Shown: piece after piece, positions 10,136 through 21,002 of the stretch | Position numbering within the stretch: position 1 is the first letter of the stretch | How the letters are laid out: the number at the start of each line of letters is the position of its first letter | Source: Candidatus Thorarchaeota archaeon | GTDB lineage: Archaea > Asgardarchaeota > Thorarchaeia > Thorarchaeales > Thorarchaeaceae | NCBI GenBank assembly: GCA_963726195.1 | Contig: CAVSBO010000008.1 | Location: 96,001-160,000 of the forward strand | Length of the DNA stretch: 64,000 nt | Reading direction: 5' to 3' | Notes under the pieces: generated by a model | Seen by the model: only the letters and a program-made list of their open reading frames with translations | Database searches by the model: none | What the model was told of the DNA's origin: nothing | Made by a program: the position numbers and the translations under genes

Positions 10136-10586
10136 CTAGGAATCCCATGTGATTCCAAGCATTCTCTCGGCCGTTTCCCACAACCTTCGTTGCAGGTCCA
10201 AATCATAGGACAGCTCGGACGAGCGGCTCTCTTCCTTCTTTGAGAAATACTTGCCGCTGACACCCTCGATGTCTGGCGACGATGCAAGAAGAACAGAAGT
10301 CTCTGCCCCCTTCTCTGGAGGGATTTGCATTGGACGTACCATCTTGAACATGACACTGCTTCGGGTTCCTGCGTTGCCTCCCAGATTGGTTGCAACGAAA
10401 CCCGGATGAACGACGTTGGCAGTTACACCAGTGTTCTCCAGACGGCGAGCTAGTTCGTAAGTGAACATGAGAACCATTAGCTTGGCATTCTGATACGCTG
10501 TCATTCCTTTGTAGTGCTTCGTGCTCTGAAGATTGTCGAAGTCGATCACTCCATTCTTGTGAAGTCCTGAGGTTATGTTGATAACC
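10136..10586 (-). pseudogene. SDR oxidoreductase (retinol dehydrogenase-like), C-terminal half, interrupted by insertion
   Basis: VINITSGLH...AYQNAK (YxxxK)...VHPGFVATNL; joins the N-terminal half in frame as PSR-VIN. Confidence 0.9.
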
Positions 10587-10588
10587 GT

Positions 10589-12627
10589 TCATTGTAAGTT
10601 GGACAAAGTTGGACATATTTCCTTTGTCCTCCCAGGAACGGCACTGGGACTCTGGACATGAATTATGTTTCGTGCAGCATTGATGTCCGCATGAATGTGT
10701 GAGTCGCAGTTTGGACAGTAGAAGTACTCTCCACCTTTCTGTTCCACCTTTGACCTGCAACTATCGACACGTATGCCTTTCTGCCTGCACACATGGCAGG
10801 TCTGGCTGGTGTAGGCGGGGTTCACTGTCCACACACTGTACGGGCTATGACCCAGTGACTCGCGCATGTACCGGACAGTGTCGATAACCTCTCCCCACAG
10901 GTTGGTGGAGAGTCTCCACGACAGGGCTCCCTGACCAGCCGGGGTCTGGTAGTTCCTCAAGTCTTCGAAGTAAACGGTCTTCACACTGTGCTCTTCGCAG
11001 AACCAAACAGTGTGCGAAGCAACCAACCGGGAAACTTCACGGTCGAGACGACGCACCTTCTGCCACACAGCATCCTGATGTCTCTCTTTTTTTAGCAAGA
11101 ACACAGGATGCGACAGCCCCGGCCGTTTCTTGTCCCAGTTGTTCCTTCTCCTGTCCACTTCGGATCTGAGCAGCGAGGCCTGTTCTCTAAGCCTCTCCCT
11201 TTTCTCCAACAGATACTCCACTCTAAGCAGCTCGTCCAGGTAATCACCATCCTCTTGAACTGAAAGGGCAACGGGGACTCTCACACCCCTATCGACACCG
11301 GCTAGTGCAGTGTACTCCTTTTCTCCTAAGACCTGCAGCAGAGTCTTTCTGTCAGGGGAAAGAAAGGGGATTTGGAGTGTGACGCGATGACCTCTCATGA
11401 GCAGGCGAGGTGGGGCACTCCTCCTCAAGGACTTCAAACTCTTCATATCGGCCTCGAGCCTCGCCACCTCTTCGGGGTCGGATTCTCTCTTCTGTCTGAG
11501 GCATGAGAGCGCGTAGGCCAAGTGCTGGACTTGAATGGTGTTCATGAGCTGTTGGTGTTGGTCCTCAAGCTTCGCTGCCCTGAACCTCAGCCTGTGTTGC
11601 ACGAGCAACTCTTCCCTCCTGCTCGACTGCCTCGGCTCTGTTACGGCCGTCTCCCGCAGCACGAGGCAGCCAGTTCAGAAATCTGAAGGTCAGAGTCTGA
11701 GTACCATATGGAGAACCGTCGCTGGGTGTGCCATCGAGTCCCGGGAGGGAGCTTGATGTGGAGGAGAACCTCATTCTCCCTATCGTTGTCGAGTGTGAAC
11801 CAGTAACCCTGTCCCACACTGTTCTCTGTCGATGCCGAGTAGTCAAGGCTCCACTTTCTGAGCTGAGGGACTGTAAAGGGATACCCCTCCTTGTGCCAGC
11901 ATTGTATCCGCTCAGCTACGAGCGAGGTCACTTCCCCGAACTCGGGCGAGTTGGCCTGCAGGTGGTCACCGACCCGCTTCCTCTGCGCAGACCTCGACCC
12001 AAGGGGCTGAGCAAGTGAGGAGAGAATGTACTCGTCAAGAGCCCTCCTGATCTGTTTCAGAGCACCCAAGGCATAGTGATATCCTGTACCGTTGTCCTTT
12101 GCACGCTCACAGGAGTCTCTCACCTTTCGTATCAGGTCAGCTGGAATGTATCTGTTCCTGAGCAAACGGAGTTGGTCGGCAAGGGAAGCATCCAGAAGAG
12201 AAACTGCAGATTCCACAAGCCTTCTTCGAGTGTGGTCAGCATGAACCGTCCTGGCAGCCTGTTCCAGTACGTCCCTATGAAGCCTTTCGAACACAAGCTG
12301 TCTGAACTCTTCGTTATGCTGGTAACAGAGGTCACGCTCCTTCCTGAGGAGCGTGTAGCCATAACCCCTGTACTTCGTCAGCTCTTCGCCCAACCTCTTT
12401 GCTCTTGCAGGGTGAGAATAGACTCGCTCAAGTGCGAGGTTGACCGCCTTCACATACCTGTCCAAGTAAGTACCTATGGTAGCCAGCCCAAGATCCCCGA
12501 CCTTTGTGCCAAAGGTCCTGCATAATGTATGCAGTCTTTCTTGGGATGATATGGATGCGTTTGAGGGGAAGGTTCTCCTACTGAAGGCCGGGTCTGGCTG
12601 CTTTCCAAGACCTTTGTGCGAGGGCAT
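10589..12627 (-). CDS. tnpB: Large TnpB/Cas12-like RNA-guided endonuclease (~680 aa; 1-2 frameshifts near 11590-11745)
   Basis: RuvC-I LAGVDRG, RuvC-II VYFEDL, VNPAYTSQTCHVC, FYCPNC..HADINAARNI; N-terminal part in ORF 11641-12750; start chosen at the ATG downstream of a TATA-like tract. Confidence 0.85.
10596..10615 (+). repeat. Subterminal tandem repeat AAGTTGGACA x2 (TnpB-proximal end)
   Basis: Perfect 10-bp tandem, 9 bp inside the CC core. Confidence 0.85.
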
Positions 12628-12680
12628 GTAATCTTGGGAACACAGGGTGAAGGACTCGACAAGATATCTCACGTGACCAC

Positions 12681-12914
12681 AATTATATATGCCGCCCATT
12701 GTTGTATGCATGCTCTGCGTCCGGGGGTGGCGCTGGACGGGTCGTTTCACGGCAGTTCCTCAACATCTCTGTGTATTGCGGTCCTCTTAAGCGCCACCAA
12801 TTATATATATCATGGAAGTTTCCCAACTGAGAACTTATGCATACTATATTTGCCACTTTTGACTGTCATATCGCTTGTATAATTAGCCATATTGTCACAG
12901 CATCCTTATAAATA
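12681..12914. promoter_or_regulatory. Divergent AT-rich promoter region with three TATA-like boxes
   Basis: AATTATATAT 12681-12690, AATTATATATAT 12799-12810, TTATAAATA 12906-12914 (about 20 nt before ATG 12934). Confidence 0.55.
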
Positions 12915-12933
12915 GCTGAGGTCCACCAGTACC

Positions 12934-15900
12934 ATGCTCAAGGGCGAGACCGATGTCAGACCAAGTGAGGTTTTGAGAGATTCATTGTCAATAGGCCTGG
13001 CCGCCATAGCCAGACTGACAAGGTGTCGCTCCAATTCCACTGTCAGGAAGTACGTCGACTCGATAGCCCAGTGCTGGTCCGATGCATCTGCCAAGCTGGA
13101 AAACGTCCTTGCCACGACACAGTACGGAGCATCTGCGATCGTGTCATCAATCGCAGCCATAGAGCACAGTCTTCGGCACTCCATCTCAAGTTCCTCTGGC
13201 AGAGCACGAAACGCTACGGAAACCGCGAATTCAAACGGGTTTACGATTGGAGACAGGGCTCTGTTGGTCCGCTTAACGGGTTTCTGAACTACCTTGGAGC
13301 AAGGCTCAGAGACCTTGCCGTTACCCGCTATTCATTTCCAACACCCCAGCACTATCAGGTGAGAGAGTACCCTGACGGCTCCAAGAAGGTTCTCGCAGCG
13401 TCCGTTGCATCCAAGTTACCCATTGACGGCTCAGTAAAGAGATACTGGAAGGCAGGATACCCAGGGACATCGAGAGCCCCGCGGGTGCTGCTAGCACACC
13501 CAACTCTTCCGGAAATGGACTTCGTGGACATGCTCCGGGGGCATCTGGTCGAGCTCTCTCGTCAGCTGTTTATCTACAACGTGCCCCGTGATGATGCCCA
13601 TAGATACATCCGACTCTTGGTTGCTCGGTTAACGCCATTCCTCGACTGGGTCTACACAGGAGGAAAGGCAGGTCGCAAGAACTTCTGTCCTGATGGTGAC
13701 AGAGAACTCAGGCACCTTGTCCTCGAAATACGGTCCACTTACGGCAGAAGAGCTGGACAGGGTCGTAGGACATCTGAGATGGCTCAGCAAGAGGGAACTC
13801 CGAGTGTCAGTATCGCTACGCTCACAGAGAAAGCCATTGGACTACTCCAGAGCACCCAAGATCCTGAGATTCGGAAGGCATGCGAGCGCATACTTGACAG
13901 TATAAACCAAGAGGTTCTCACCGAGAATGACGTGATGCGGCTCAGGGAGCACATAGTCGCTCTAATTCAACAGGAGGGCAATGACTGGCACAGGGTGCTT
14001 CTATCAGACCTGCATCACTGTTCTCTCATCGATGCTGTTCTGAGCGGCGACTCGATGCTTGAGACTGTCTCCGATAGACAGTTCTTAGCCGAGGTTCTCA
14101 ATGAAAGGTTCTGAAGACCAAGGGCAGGCTGATATTGTCCTCTTTCTGAGGAGAAAAGCGGGACTACGAGTAGTCTGGACTCCCGTGATGGTTCTGGAGA
14201 TAAAGACGAGAAGCTCCTTCGATTTTGCGCTCTACGGCCTAAGACCACGAACCAAGATTATGAACGCGTTTGTGCCAGCCCTTTGCCCTTGGAAAGTGTT
14301 CTCTTTCAGAGAAAGAGTGGGAGAGCATCGTTTCGTCAGAACCGCCGCAGAGCAACCTGCGACAGTTGGAGCTCTATGAACGAGGACTGATAGAGGAGTA
14401 CCGACGACTGGTTCCTGAGGATCACACGCTGCCGTCTCTCTGTGGAAAGGTGTCGTAGTGGTCGACAGCTTACAGACATACAAAGAGACCTTCGAAGCCT
14501 TCTCTGCTCTCACTCAGAACCTGATGCAGCTTCGTCACTTGCCATCAGGAAAAGGAAGATGGTCTTCGCTGAGCATGAAAGACCTCTTTGACAGGAGTCC
14601 GAGAGTCGCATTGCTGATGTCACCTTCCGAGGGGCCATCCCACTTGCTCAGTCGGACCACATTTCCAGACTCCATCTTGATAGAGAACCCGTTCAAGGAC
14701 AGTACCGAACACCAGCGGAATCTGACGCTCTACATACCTGTCGCATCAGTCAACATCTGGAGGAAGAGCCGCTGCATGGCACTCCAAGAACTGGCATTTG
14801 CTCAACCATATCCAAGAACTGCGCGAAAGAGACCGGGATGTTGGAGGTGTGGTCTGGCTGGATTTAACCAGCTCTCTTCCTGAAGGGTTTCGCAGACGTG
14901 CTTTCAGGCTGGAGAACACCAGGAGGAAGAAAGGGCGGCTTCTGGAACACTTGCAGCGATTCTGGATGAAGTCGATTTTCATGACATGGGGAATATGGTG
15001 CGAGAATACCTTGCAGGCAGGGCTGATGCAGACATAGCACGGGAGCTGACTGGTATCAGGCAATCACGGCAGCCCGGCTCCCGATTCATCGTCGTCATTG
15101 ATGGATGGAGCGAACTCCGCCAAATGGTCCATGGCTCTGAAAGGCAGAGACTCAGAGCCCTTGAACAGCTTCTCGTCGAGAAGATTGTCGCAAAAGAGAA
15201 CGAGGTCATATGGGTTGACAGTGGAATCCAGCACACGAAGATGAACTTGATTTACCAGAGACCATGCGTACGTCCGCTGGAGGCAGATTCGCCTCGCAGA
15301 CTTCGTCTCGGGGAGATATTATGGAACATGCCTTTGCCGCCAAAGGGATTCGGATGGCAGGCACCATGGTTTGACGATAAGAGGGTGATTATTCAGGACA
15401 CTGCCACTTCAGCACCTCTCTGGTCAACGGTAATTGATGTGCCGATGTTAAGACATTGGCCGAGGAAGTTCAGAGGTCTATCGAACAGGGAAGTGACAAT
15501 CCAGGAATATGAAGTCAGGTCCAGTCTTCTGACAGACGAAGACATGTACGGTCGGTCTGTCCGGCTTTCTTCTATCCAAGCCGATATGCAGCAGCTTTCT
15601 GAAGAGACAATCATGGACATTCAAGAGAAAGCGATGAGTCTCGCTCCGAGCCTACTCAGATCAAGAAACAGGGAAGAACAACAAGTCATACCAGACACCG
15701 AACAGTCGTCGATGACCCTGCTTTCCGTTATGGTTACATGTGCCTCGCCTCCGACCCTTAGTGATAGACTGCATCTCCAGCCCTGTCATCCTCCTCCTGA
15801 GCCCGGGCGGTCCAAGCTGAGATATGTGGACCCGGAGCGGATAACACGTGAGTGGCAGAACAGAATCCTAAAGAAGGACGAGGAAGATAGCAAGAGAAGT

Positions 15901-18058
15901 CGCATGACCCGGCGGCCTCCGCTCTATGCTGTGACCATGTCTCAGAGAATCGACTCCGACACAACTCGAAGACGTGAAGTCAGACGACTAATGCATGCGG
16001 CCGACTATCTCAAGCACCGACTCGACCCCGGCGAAGATCTGGAAGTTCTGTTCGAAGACATAGTTGCTTGCTGTCGTTCCACGCTTGAAGGCCCAAGAAA
16101 TGGCCAGTTGTATCTGAAGACTTTGTTGGAAGTCCATGACATGATTCTTGAGAACACGAGACGGCGAGGTGCATGGCTTTTGATAGAGCAAGAGAGGAAC
16201 ACCCTCGGAGATGTTCTGAGCCTTGAGAACCGTGCCGCGCTTCAACAAGCGATGTCTCGCAACCCCGAGCTGCTGACGCTATATGGCAACAATCTGTTCC
16301 TTGCTGTAATCGTTGCCATCACGAGAATCATGGATGACCCCGTTGATCTGGGGATACTCCCACTATGGAGAGCAGTTGCAGAATGGGAGCTCTATCAGAT
16401 GGGTTTCAAGCCCGCAGAGAGGCCGCCATACATGGCTCGTTCCAGATACGACTTCGCGTCAATCTATGGCAACCTGCTGTTCCGGACAAGGAACCTCGTA
16501 TCTCAGAAACAGAAATCACAGGCCGCACCGAAGAGGCCTCAGGCATATCAGTATAGAGAGGGGATACTTGTCGGTAAAGAGGGGTCGTCCTGCTGGCTCC
16601 TGTTCAAAGCGGATGATGGAAGGGTTGTATGCGGGTTGCTAGAGGACCCCGGTGGCAGGCTGGGCATAGGTTGGTATCGATGTTCTACCAATCCTGCGCA
16701 GATGTCTGAGGCTGCTGAGGACACTCTTCACGGGAGCAACGACGACATTCAGATGCACTTGGCCGTGACCACCGTGGGCAAATCCGAGATACTCTGGCAG
16801 CGGCACGAAGAAGGCACCGGTGGCTGGATGCTTCTGGGACGACTTGAGTATCAGATTAACGAACGAGAGGGAGTCGCAACCATACCGTGGCTGAAGACAT
16901 CAGAACCGGATTTGAAGACCTCGCTAGGCCTATCTGAGAGCATGCCCGTAGGTGTACCATCCTCAGAGTCAACGTCGCGGCTACTAACCCCTCTCAAGAA
17001 AATAGCAGAGTGGAATGTCGAAGTCAAGAGTGTGAAGTGTGAGGTCTCATTGGACACTAGGAAAAGAGCGTATGTCATTACATTTCGCAATCCTGAACTG
17101 CCCAGCCAGTGAAGTCTACGAGAGTTTTGAGAGCGCAGACACCCTTGAAATCGTGTCCGTACTGAGGTCGCCCGTGACAGGAAAACAACAGGTGATCACA
17201 AAGGAAGGAGCAGTCCTCACTTGGGACCATCTGAAGGATATCGACTATGGGGTCGCAACAGTTCCAACTCGAGATGGTGAGGCAGATATCAGCCTGTCAT
17301 TCCTCAGACCTCTTGTCCATCGCAGTCGGTTCTTTGCCGGAGATTATGTGGTTCCATACAATGCGACTCAGCTGTTCACTCTTAGAGAGGGACCGCCTGT
17401 GACGATCAGAGTCCTCCCGTGGGACAGAAAACAAAGTGACTATGACCTCAGACGACTCAGGGTCACCATTGATGGACTCAACGAGGACTCTGGCTTGAAG
17501 GGTCTCGAGGATAGAATGATGAAAGTCCGGGATGTCGCTCTGCTGACGGACTGCGAGCACTCATCGATGTCAGGTCAGGTCTGGTACATCCCGTACGAGT
17601 TAACGTCAGAAAGGTGGTCGGGCTTAAGTCTCCTGAGGACATATCAGATTCCCGACTTGTGGAGCTGACTTTCGGAGTTGGAGGAGGAGAGCCATGATTC
17701 AGATGAGGAGTCAGAGTCTTACTCAGACGAGAAGCAAGAGAAGAGTTCCAAAGCGGAACAACGTCAAATGGTCTTCGTGTCAGCCAATGTAATCGTTGGC
17801 AGGCGAATGACTGTCATAGAGTATCATGTAGACGTGACGTTGGCTCCGGTCGATGATACAAAAAGCGTGGAGGTGGGAGAACTCATGACAGTGAGGTGGG
17901 AGAAAGGCCGTACTGCAGCCAACTATGAGGGCTTAGCAGAAGAGATTAGTGCGAATCTCAGGAAACAGGGCGTGGTGGAAGGCGACCATGGGGAAGCCAC
18001 CCGAGACATTATGGCTCTGCTGGAGAAGGCGGGCCTGCCGGTTCTGGAGGATGAGTAA
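12934..18058 (+). CDS. Giant (~1,700 aa) hypothetical protein with PD-(D/E)XK/RecB-like nuclease motifs and a degenerate P-loop-like region, split into about 8 ORFs by frameshifts
   Basis: Abutting or overlapping + strand ORFs from 12934 to 18058; motifs GQADIVL..VLEIKT..QLELYE; Walker-B-like FIVVIDG. Confidence 0.6.
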
Positions 18059-18187
18059 GAGGAAATGGTTGCAGTGCCAGATACTGTGAACCCAAGGCTG
18101 GCAGCCGCGGTTCCTCGATCACGACTTAGCCTATCCGACATTGTTACAACACGCTGCAGCATTCATCCGCCTTGGATGTGTCCTCCA

Positions 18188-18207
18188 TGTCCAAGATTGT
18201 CCAACTT
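18188..18207 (-). repeat. Subterminal tandem repeat AAGTTGGACA-ATCTTGGACA (distal end, inverted relative to the other end)
   Basis: TGTCCAAGAT TGTCCAACTT on the + strand. Confidence 0.85.
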
Positions 18208-18221
18208 CTAGGCAGTGGATA

Positions 18222-18629
18222 CCCTTGAAGGGGCGCTCGATTTCAAGATCGGCAGCAGTTCGTGTGTCAGGAGAAAAGGAGCAAGGTAGTTCACTGCCAA
18301 TGATCGTCGAAACCATCGACAGTTACCTCTCGCTTGTTGAAGACAGCGCCAGCATTGTTGTCTAGAACGTCAAGTCGCTCATGACTATTCTGAAACTCTT
18401 CTGCAAAACGACGTATCTCTTGCACAGAGGAGAGGTCACAAATCATGAGTTCGAGCGCATTGTTGCCGGTTGTCTTAGCGATTTCCGCACGCGCTTGTTC
18501 GCCTCGCTCTCTGTTTCTAACAACCATAACTACATTGGCATCCATCCGAGCCAATGCTCTGGCCGTCTCTTTTCCTATCCCTGAGTTGCTGCCGGTGACT
18601 ACGCAGACCTTGTTTGTCATGAGTCCCAT
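18222..18629 (-). pseudogene. SDR oxidoreductase N-terminal half (plus a 1-bp frameshift near 18310)
   Basis: VTGSNSGIG, CDLSS, LDVLDNNAG, AVNYLAPFLLT, ending at SSAPSR at the insertion junction. Confidence 0.9.
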
Positions 18630-18794
18630 TCTCTCTGCTCCCAGTACACTACTCGTGTTCTGTTGGTGCTTCATGAAACCAATAACACGGATTATCAGAA
18701 TCGCAACGGATTTCCTATGATTCCGTTATTGTAGTATCGATAGGGCCTTTTCCGTGCGTCGAGAGGTTGCACTCATAATTGTCACTCTAATCCA

Positions 18795-21002
<2,208 letters not shown>

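Follow-up and report, generated by a model that had tools for sequence, protein, structure and literature searches.

The stretch of DNA analyzed here (64,000 nucleotides of contig CAVSBO010000008.1 from the Candidatus Thorarchaeota genome assembly GCA_963726195.1, positions 96,001 to 160,000; hereafter, the window) contains a 7,637-bp mobile element that interrupts a short-chain dehydrogenase (SDR) gene and has a coding content of two genes only, one for a TnpB-like protein and the other for a giant protein. The giant gene (12934..18058, + strand; 1,708 codons when read through) carries nine 1-nt indels. The TnpB-like gene (10589..12750, - strand), whose product is 722 amino acids (aa) long in the intact paralog P0011, is split by +1 indels at 11591 and 11740, and the region between the two divergent genes (12751..12933) presumably holds their promoters, judging by the layout of the open reading frames (ORFs). 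The C-terminal half of the TnpB-like product matches the Pfam family Cas12f1-like_TNB and the NCBIfam family guided_TnpB. The locus is a damaged member of the aCas1-TnpB family, a group of elements known from computational cataloguing.

Across 12934-18058, the + strand encompasses ten abutting or overlapping open segments, in frames 1, 0, 1, 2, 1, 2, 1, 2, 1 and 2, in this order; a preliminary description of the window had recognized this chain and its total of about 1,700 codons but had counted eight fragments. These fragments are one damaged gene that encodes a Thorarchaeota-type Asgard giant aCas1 protein, as becomes apparent from the comparison with another locus of the same genome (G000; 2.9 Mb in 19 contigs, among which the window contig is C8). 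Contig C16 carries an uninterrupted, colinear paralog with a 1,722-codon open frame (1,708 aa from the first start codon; P0010), and the window locus and the C16 locus are 87.6% identical at the nucleotide level over 10586-18192 (~7.6 kb). Pairwise alignment with P0010 places the indels of the giant gene at 13179-, 14095+, 14298+, 14434-, 14750+, 14946-, 17108+, 17560- and 17668+, along with a single in-frame 3-nt gap; the two indels of the neighboring tnpB-like gene, relative to its own paralog, are 11591+ and 11740+. The frameshift-corrected protein, a reconstruction suggested in the preliminary description, reads through all 1,708 codons without an in-frame stop when each break is filled with X, and is 85.6% identical to P0010 at the amino acid level, with a dN/dS of 0.26 over the whole length; together, these values indicate that the fragments belong to a single gene that was under selection until very recently. 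The claim of one multidomain protein made in that description thus holds, whereas the N-terminal Cys/His cluster also reported there is an artifact that arose because 13023-13178, which precedes the -1 indel at 13179, was translated out of frame; no cluster of this kind exists in the conserved protein. The possibility that the fragments are independent small genes or noncoding noise can appeal to the separate ORFs obtained with genetic code table 11 but is negligible and can be considered refuted, given the intact 1,708-aa paralog and dozens of intact homologs, the frame-matched open segments separated in every case by a 1-nt indel, the lack of stops, the dN/dS value, and the contigs from two other metagenomes that lack those of the indels that they cover.

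Homologs of the giant protein were detected in 57 of the 400 genomes of the Asgard phylum, including 53 of the 85 genomes of the family to which the window belongs and 3 of 12 in one other family, with none elsewhere. These homologs are 1,550-1,880 aa long and mostly free of stops, and often occur in several copies per genome. When 1.84 billion representative proteins were searched with the family profile, only 185 matches were obtained; the 150 that were listed are all colinear with the profile, and none of these 150 links the giant family to canonical Cas1 or to known nuclease families. In every case examined, the giant gene is paired head-to-head with a TnpB gene. A divergent TnpB-like gene lies upstream of the giant at all four loci in the genome (the window, C16, C3 and a fourth paralog, also on C16); at 8 further loci, the giant is found beside a long (~720-aa) TnpB, and at 20 of 20 further loci, examined with a hidden Markov model built from the family, beside a TnpB with an open frame of 545-631 aa. 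Moreover, in each of two other genomes, the homology between paralogous units begins and ends exactly at the two stop codons, that of tnpB and that of the giant gene. The tight linkage to TnpB assumed in the preliminary description is therefore borne out, and "cargo" is a fair word for the giant in this element.

Pairs of this kind have been catalogued previously: Altae-Tran et al. 2023 (PMC10691335) described TnpBs associated with aCas1 (Asgard Cas1 variants) in two Asgard groups, suggested aCas1 as the transposase, cited Makarova et al. 2020, and noted a hypervariable stretch near the motif GTTCACTCA downstream of tnpB. Among the loci related to the window element, GTTCACTCA(C) closes the conserved region downstream of tnpB in 14 of 18, with a variant in the other four; the divergence beyond it is that of ordinary flanks, and the variable stretch before the motif amounts to no more than a few bases. 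The window itself contains 13 near-matches to GTTCACTCA, against 20 expected by chance, and the one near tnpB is SDR coding sequence. At four loci of the larger TnpB subgroup (L043, L045, L051 and L058), the flank that follows GTTCACTCAC at the tnpB end resembles the reverse complement of a tRNA 3' end (...GGATTCGAACCC...), which suggests that several elements of this subgroup are inserted next to tRNA genes.

The domain architecture of the giant was examined using the intact homologs and AlphaFold2 models built from a 29-sequence alignment (residues 1-905, pLDDT 81 and pTM 0.81; residues 940-1708, pLDDT 81 and pTM 0.49). Searches of Pfam and NCBIfam with the fragments and with the intact giant gave no family, and comparison of the family profile with PDB sequences using hmmsearch produced nothing significant. 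A succession of a Cas1-type catalytic domain, a region with RecB-type PD-(D/E)XK motifs, a RecA/KaiC-like domain and about 770 residues of unknown fold, from the N-terminus to the C-terminus, is well supported. The Cas1-like helical domain (12934..13745, + strand; residues ~1-270) is the most conserved part of the giant family. In hhalign comparisons (P 7.6e-4 to 2.3e-3), E77, H189 and D196/D199 align with the E, LH and LDLxEE motifs of Cas1, and N115-N119 with NxLLxYG; across the homologs, each of these positions is invariant or conserved to at least 90%, and the window copy has them all. The catalytic residues of Cas1, in the Escherichia coli numbering, are E141, H208, D218 and D221. The N-terminal ~260 residues are predicted to adopt the all-helical fold of the Cas1 C-terminal catalytic domain, with a beta insertion at residues 139-176 in the model, and the casposase structure 6opm_A is among the structure matches. 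The N-terminal beta-sandwich domain of Cas1 is absent: residue 2 of the giant aligns with positions ~81-114 of Cas1 structures, and nothing precedes the helical domain. A six-frame search of 86 genomes with Pfam Cas_Cas1 (PF01867) recovered only canonical Cas1 genes of ~340 aa, none of these in the window's genome. A protein that the preliminary description could not assign to any known family starts with a Cas1-type catalytic domain, and its pairing with TnpB is of the kind catalogued in PMC10691335.

The candidate nuclease region (14010..14470, + strand; residues ~360-511) contains the GQADIVL, VLEIKT and QLELYE motifs that were already pointed out in the preliminary description, and the key residues E387, D400, E/D422 and K424 of ExK, and Q477 and Y481 of QxxxY are invariant in the 29 homologs. 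In the model, a single hairpin carries D400 and ExK on its paired strands, and the next helix carries QxxxY. Structure comparison gave no match for this domain, the match lists being filled by the other two domains such that residues 340-560 were barely sampled. A language-model feature search with the nuclease region can be taken as a lead: all rows that carry a Pfam assignment belong to the PD-(D/E)XK clan (0.82-0.86), and the two best rows (0.92 and 0.86) carry none. In comparisons with Cas4, hhalign against 17 Thorarchaeial Cas4 sequences gave a probability of 0.5%, Pfam Cas_Cas4 (PF01930) does not match the giants, and none of the columns of residues 340-530 that are invariant or nearly so holds a Cys, hence no conserved Fe-S cysteine set. 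Residues 591-899 (14704..15630, + strand) match the cores of RecA, RadA, KaiC and DnaB, and show the RecA core fold. The VVWLD, FIVVIDG and VIWVDSG motifs without a clear GKT, as first read from the sequence, are indeed found here, with D643, D723 and D762 invariant, and belong to a partly degenerate P-loop domain. The consensus at the Walker A position is S-P-T-S-S-G-x-[AST]-A-A-W, with G610 invariant and position 611 occupied by K or R in 12 of the 29 members and by N in 9; the window copy and P0010 have R611-A612, which departs from the canonical GxxxxGK[ST], and the domain is probably a non-hydrolyzing scaffold or a DNA-binding module. The C-terminal half (15751..18058, + strand; residues 940-1708) consists of a helical domain and several beta-rich domains of unknown fold. 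Within it, residues ~997-1180 weakly resemble a second Cas1-like helical domain; hhalign found no similarity between the C-terminal helical domain and either the N-terminal domain or Cas1.

The whole element occupies 10584..18220, with an ambiguity due to ACC such that 10587-18223 fits equally well. The end on the tnpB side (RE; 10586..10615, - strand) reads ...TTTGTCCAACTTACAATGAACG on the tnpB strand, overlaps the last tnpB codons and terminates 3 nt past the tnpB stop, with a sharp boundary that is conserved in 6 aligned copies. The opposite end, beyond the giant gene (LE; 18188..18220, + strand), reads TGTCCAAGATTGTCCAACTTCTAGGCAGTGGAT and forms an imperfect inverted repeat with RE, each end containing two TGTCCAA units. 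Inverted repeats sought at the element ends of 17 other loci were found at chance level only, except for one 15-bp pair common to L047 and L049. Insertion is directly evidenced by an empty site: a contig from a peat metagenome joins 10583 to 18221 and omits 7,637 bases, with 3 nt (ACC) fitting both sides, and this joint restores the SDR reading frame (...SAPSR-VINITSGLH...). In the same runs, many unrelated flanks abut 10582-10584. The insertion point in the SDR gene is ...AAGGGT^TATC..., and translation identifies the C-terminal part of that gene, including the YxxxK motif region, at 10136..10585 and the N-terminal part at 18221..18674 (both on the - strand). The N-terminal SDR fragment has a 1-nt frame break of its own, at 18290-18320, where ...TVDGFD and ...LAVNYLAPFLL are in different frames.

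The same genome contains a variety of elements with related ends. A sibling on contig C3 (C3:855049-863111) consists of tnpA, encoding a 208-aa protein with MerR HTH and Resolvase domains, followed by the giant gene in reverse orientation and tnpB; a 28-bp stretch of its LE and the terminal 22 bp of its RE are identical to those of the window element. The C3 giant is split into 1,223 aa and a 312-aa ORF, its tnpB is split into 506 and 185 aa, and tnpA is located between LE and the 3' end of the giant gene. This tnpA (C3:855049-855672) is the only copy in the genome, and the window element has none; the window copy, accordingly, would be non-autonomous and moved in trans by a serine recombinase. 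In related genomes, tnpA homologs are found at the 3' end of the giant gene at about 10 further places. At least 9 protein-free mini-elements of ~170-190 bp share the LE and RE of the window element (C3:337548-337715, C4:111650-111817, C16:77293-77460, C18:4288-4458 and at least 5 more). The mini-elements retain a segment that matches the 3' end of tnpB, and might be stand-alone guide-RNA cassettes. A solo element end was found on C15. Genome-wide, there are about 20 RE-like sites, with G following in 17 of 20, mostly as GT, and each of the 12 LE copies inspected comes directly after GGT, which in 11 of them is part of GGGT. The ends of the window element are ends of the IS607-type family: GGT or GGGT before LE, G after RE and the 3-nt joint all point to IS607-type rather than Cas1-type integration, which leaves long duplications.

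In the C16 paralog unit (C16:21557-29170), both genes are open; its LE is truncated, lacks the TGTCCAA repeats and abuts a gene that appears, by eye from the DNA, to be deacetylase-like. Hence the intact C16 copy looks immobilized, whereas the window copy, which looks mobile, is frame-broken. Upstream of the window, at C8:55334-59492, a C-terminal remnant of the giant with LE and a C-terminal remnant of TnpB with RE, in the right orientation, bracket 3.2 kb that include an alpha/beta-hydrolase/TSP3-repeat gene and a BNR-repeat gene; this is either a composite element with a different cargo or a pair of decayed ends.

The frame breaks of the window copy call for caution. The indels at 11591, 11740, 13178, 14300, 14748 and 14945 are absent from contigs of two other metagenomes, from peat and sediment, that are 90-99% alike to the window; these are Logan contigs of two DNA runs, which matched by small shares (0.16 and 0.09) in a listing without any RNA run, and, coming from samples other than that of the window, they show that intact copies are the norm, and no more than that. 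In favor of assembly error, all eleven frame-breaking events in the two genes are exactly 1 nt long, and there is no nonsense substitution. In addition, 580 bp from the element end, the window contains an uninterrupted run of ~1,530 T followed by ~48 C (18802-20378); such a run is most unlikely to occur naturally and looks like an artifact of assembly or gap filling, and it makes the nearby sequence, the 1-nt indels included, less trustworthy. In favor of real decay, the LE tip of the window copy is 4 nt shorter than that of the other copies, and the interrupted SDR fragment is frame-broken as well. Alignment with the C16 locus shows no homopolymer run at any of the eleven indels.

What moves the element, and what the giant contributes, can be considered in light of these observations. 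In the scenario that we favor, with a probability of roughly 0.5, the element is moved by a serine recombinase, in trans in the case of the window copy, whereas the giant is an accessory DNA enzyme that works with TnpB rather than a transposase. Most likely, the giant would act when the element is excised or when the empty site is cut by TnpB: the nuclease domain would trim the DNA ends, the Cas1 domain would join them, and the RecA-like domain would serve as a DNA-binding or oligomerizing scaffold. Several observations weigh against this scenario. No homolog of this tnpA was detected, with this query, in 30 of the 54 giant-bearing genomes of the family, and the units of the larger TnpB subgroup hold two genes only, leaving the giant as the sole candidate transposase there. 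The domain assignments have their own weak points: the similarity to Cas1 is low at the sequence level (hhalign probability 12-25%), with no match between PF01867 and members of the giant family at E<=5, and the putative PD-(D/E)XK nuclease is identified from motifs, model topology and the feature search, with no structural match. Finally, the nine frameshifts of the giant gene are, at about even odds, very recent decay or assembly errors.

The same lack of a recombinase is what most speaks for the published proposal (PMC10691335) that the giant aCas1 is itself the transposase, with the Cas1-like domain joining the ends to the target and the PD-(D/E)XK domain cutting the other strand, like TnsA in Tn7. 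Purifying selection has preserved the Cas1 fold and its catalytic residues; casposases, one of which is among the structure matches (6opm_A), show that Cas1 homologs can be transposases; recombinase-less two-gene units are dispersed within genomes; and, in most members of the family, the unit encodes no recombinase. Conversely, the junctions of the window element share just 3 nt, including the GG core, with no long target duplication; its ends are common to the sibling with the serine recombinase and to many protein-free mini-elements; and, at the ~10 places where tnpA and the giant coexist in one element, this proposal implies two transposases per element. Overall, the evidence suggests that, at least in the Thorarchaeota-like lineage of the window, the element owes its movement to an enzyme other than the giant; the published idea is doubtful for this lineage, and we regard it as somewhat unlikely. 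A broader version, in which the giant is a single-chain integrase-nuclease of the Cas1 type coupled to TnpB, either as the transposase of the tnpA-less elements or as a TnpB-directed (RNA-guided or break-coupled) integration machine, is tentative and appears rather unlikely; under such a scheme, the weak second Cas1-like domain (~997-1180) could allow a single chain to imitate a Cas1 dimer. The idea that the giant is a defense or addiction cargo, a nuclease/ATPase-like effector unrelated to movement, draws on an architecture of nuclease and NTPase-like domains that resembles many defense proteins and on the patchy, lineage-restricted distribution of the family; it appears improbable given that, at the loci examined, the giant was found only beside TnpB, of two size classes, and not in the varied neighborhoods usual for defense genes, and that the integrase-type Cas1 domain is its most conserved part. 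Yet more far-fetched is a one-spacer proto-CRISPR, in which the Cas1-like and Cas4-like domains would form a primitive adaptation module that replaces the guide segment of the TnpB omega RNA. CRISPR adaptation modules likewise combine Cas1 with a PD-(D/E)XK nuclease, and the reported hypervariable stretch near GTTCACTCA would fit; the motif, however, merely ends the conserved region, with ordinary flank-like divergence thereafter, and the window element stops right after tnpB.

The two halves of type V CRISPR systems presumably descend from Cas1 and from TnpB. If the giant were indeed an integrase-nuclease coupled to TnpB, a single natural element would bring together the ancestor of the CRISPR adaptation enzyme (Cas1) and that of the type V effector (TnpB). 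This genome presents an unusually complete natural set, which includes an intact pair with a truncated end (C16), a frame-broken copy (the window), a sibling with a serine recombinase (C3), many mini-elements and, in a related population, an empty site, and which sharpens the question of the role of a conserved Cas1-nuclease-RecA fusion beside TnpB.

Among the known systems, IS607 is one with which the window element can be compared. As in IS607, TnpB is located at one end, which overlaps the 3' codons of tnpB; insertion occurs at a G-rich, GG-containing core with a repeat of 0-3 nt, the junctions here sharing ACC (GGT on the tnpB strand); and the family includes a sibling with a MerR-HTH/Resolvase TnpA as well as mini-elements with common ends. 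Unlike IS607, the window copy lacks tnpA and carries a 5.1-kb giant gene reversed between LE and tnpB. The element also differs from casposons, having no family B polymerase and 3 nt common to the junctions instead of a target duplication of 14-15 bp; compared with casposases, such as that of Methanosarcina mazei (PDB 6opm), the giant is about five times larger, shows no aligned Cas1 N-terminal beta domain and contains the additional nuclease and RecA-like domains. With the Cas4/RecB nucleases, including Cas4-Cas1 fusions, the giant shares D, ExK, QxxxY, the upstream invariant E and the presence of a Cas1 domain in the same chain; it differs from Cas4 in lacking the conserved Cys set and a Cas_Cas4 match, in the negative hhalign result, and in the order of the domains, with Cas1 preceding the nuclease. 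In contrast to the ATPase cores of RecA, RadA and KaiC, the position of the Walker A Lys is K or R in a minority of the giants (12/29), with R611-A612 in the window copy.

The closest counterparts are the published aCas1-TnpB groups, Cas1H-Asgard-1 and Cas1H-Asgard-2 (PMC10691335), which are likewise Asgard-restricted and combine an extremely diverged Cas1 homolog with an adjacent TnpB in repeat-flanked loci; we infer identity with the published set from its description, not from accessions. The published elements include two classes of TnpB, to which the 722-aa class and the class with open frames of 545-631 aa compare here, and have GTTCACTCA downstream of tnpB, as in the larger TnpB subgroup here. 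In a departure from the published account, the pair in the window resides inside an IS607-type element that has a tnpA-bearing sibling and mini-elements; this context argues against aCas1 simply replacing the recombinase.

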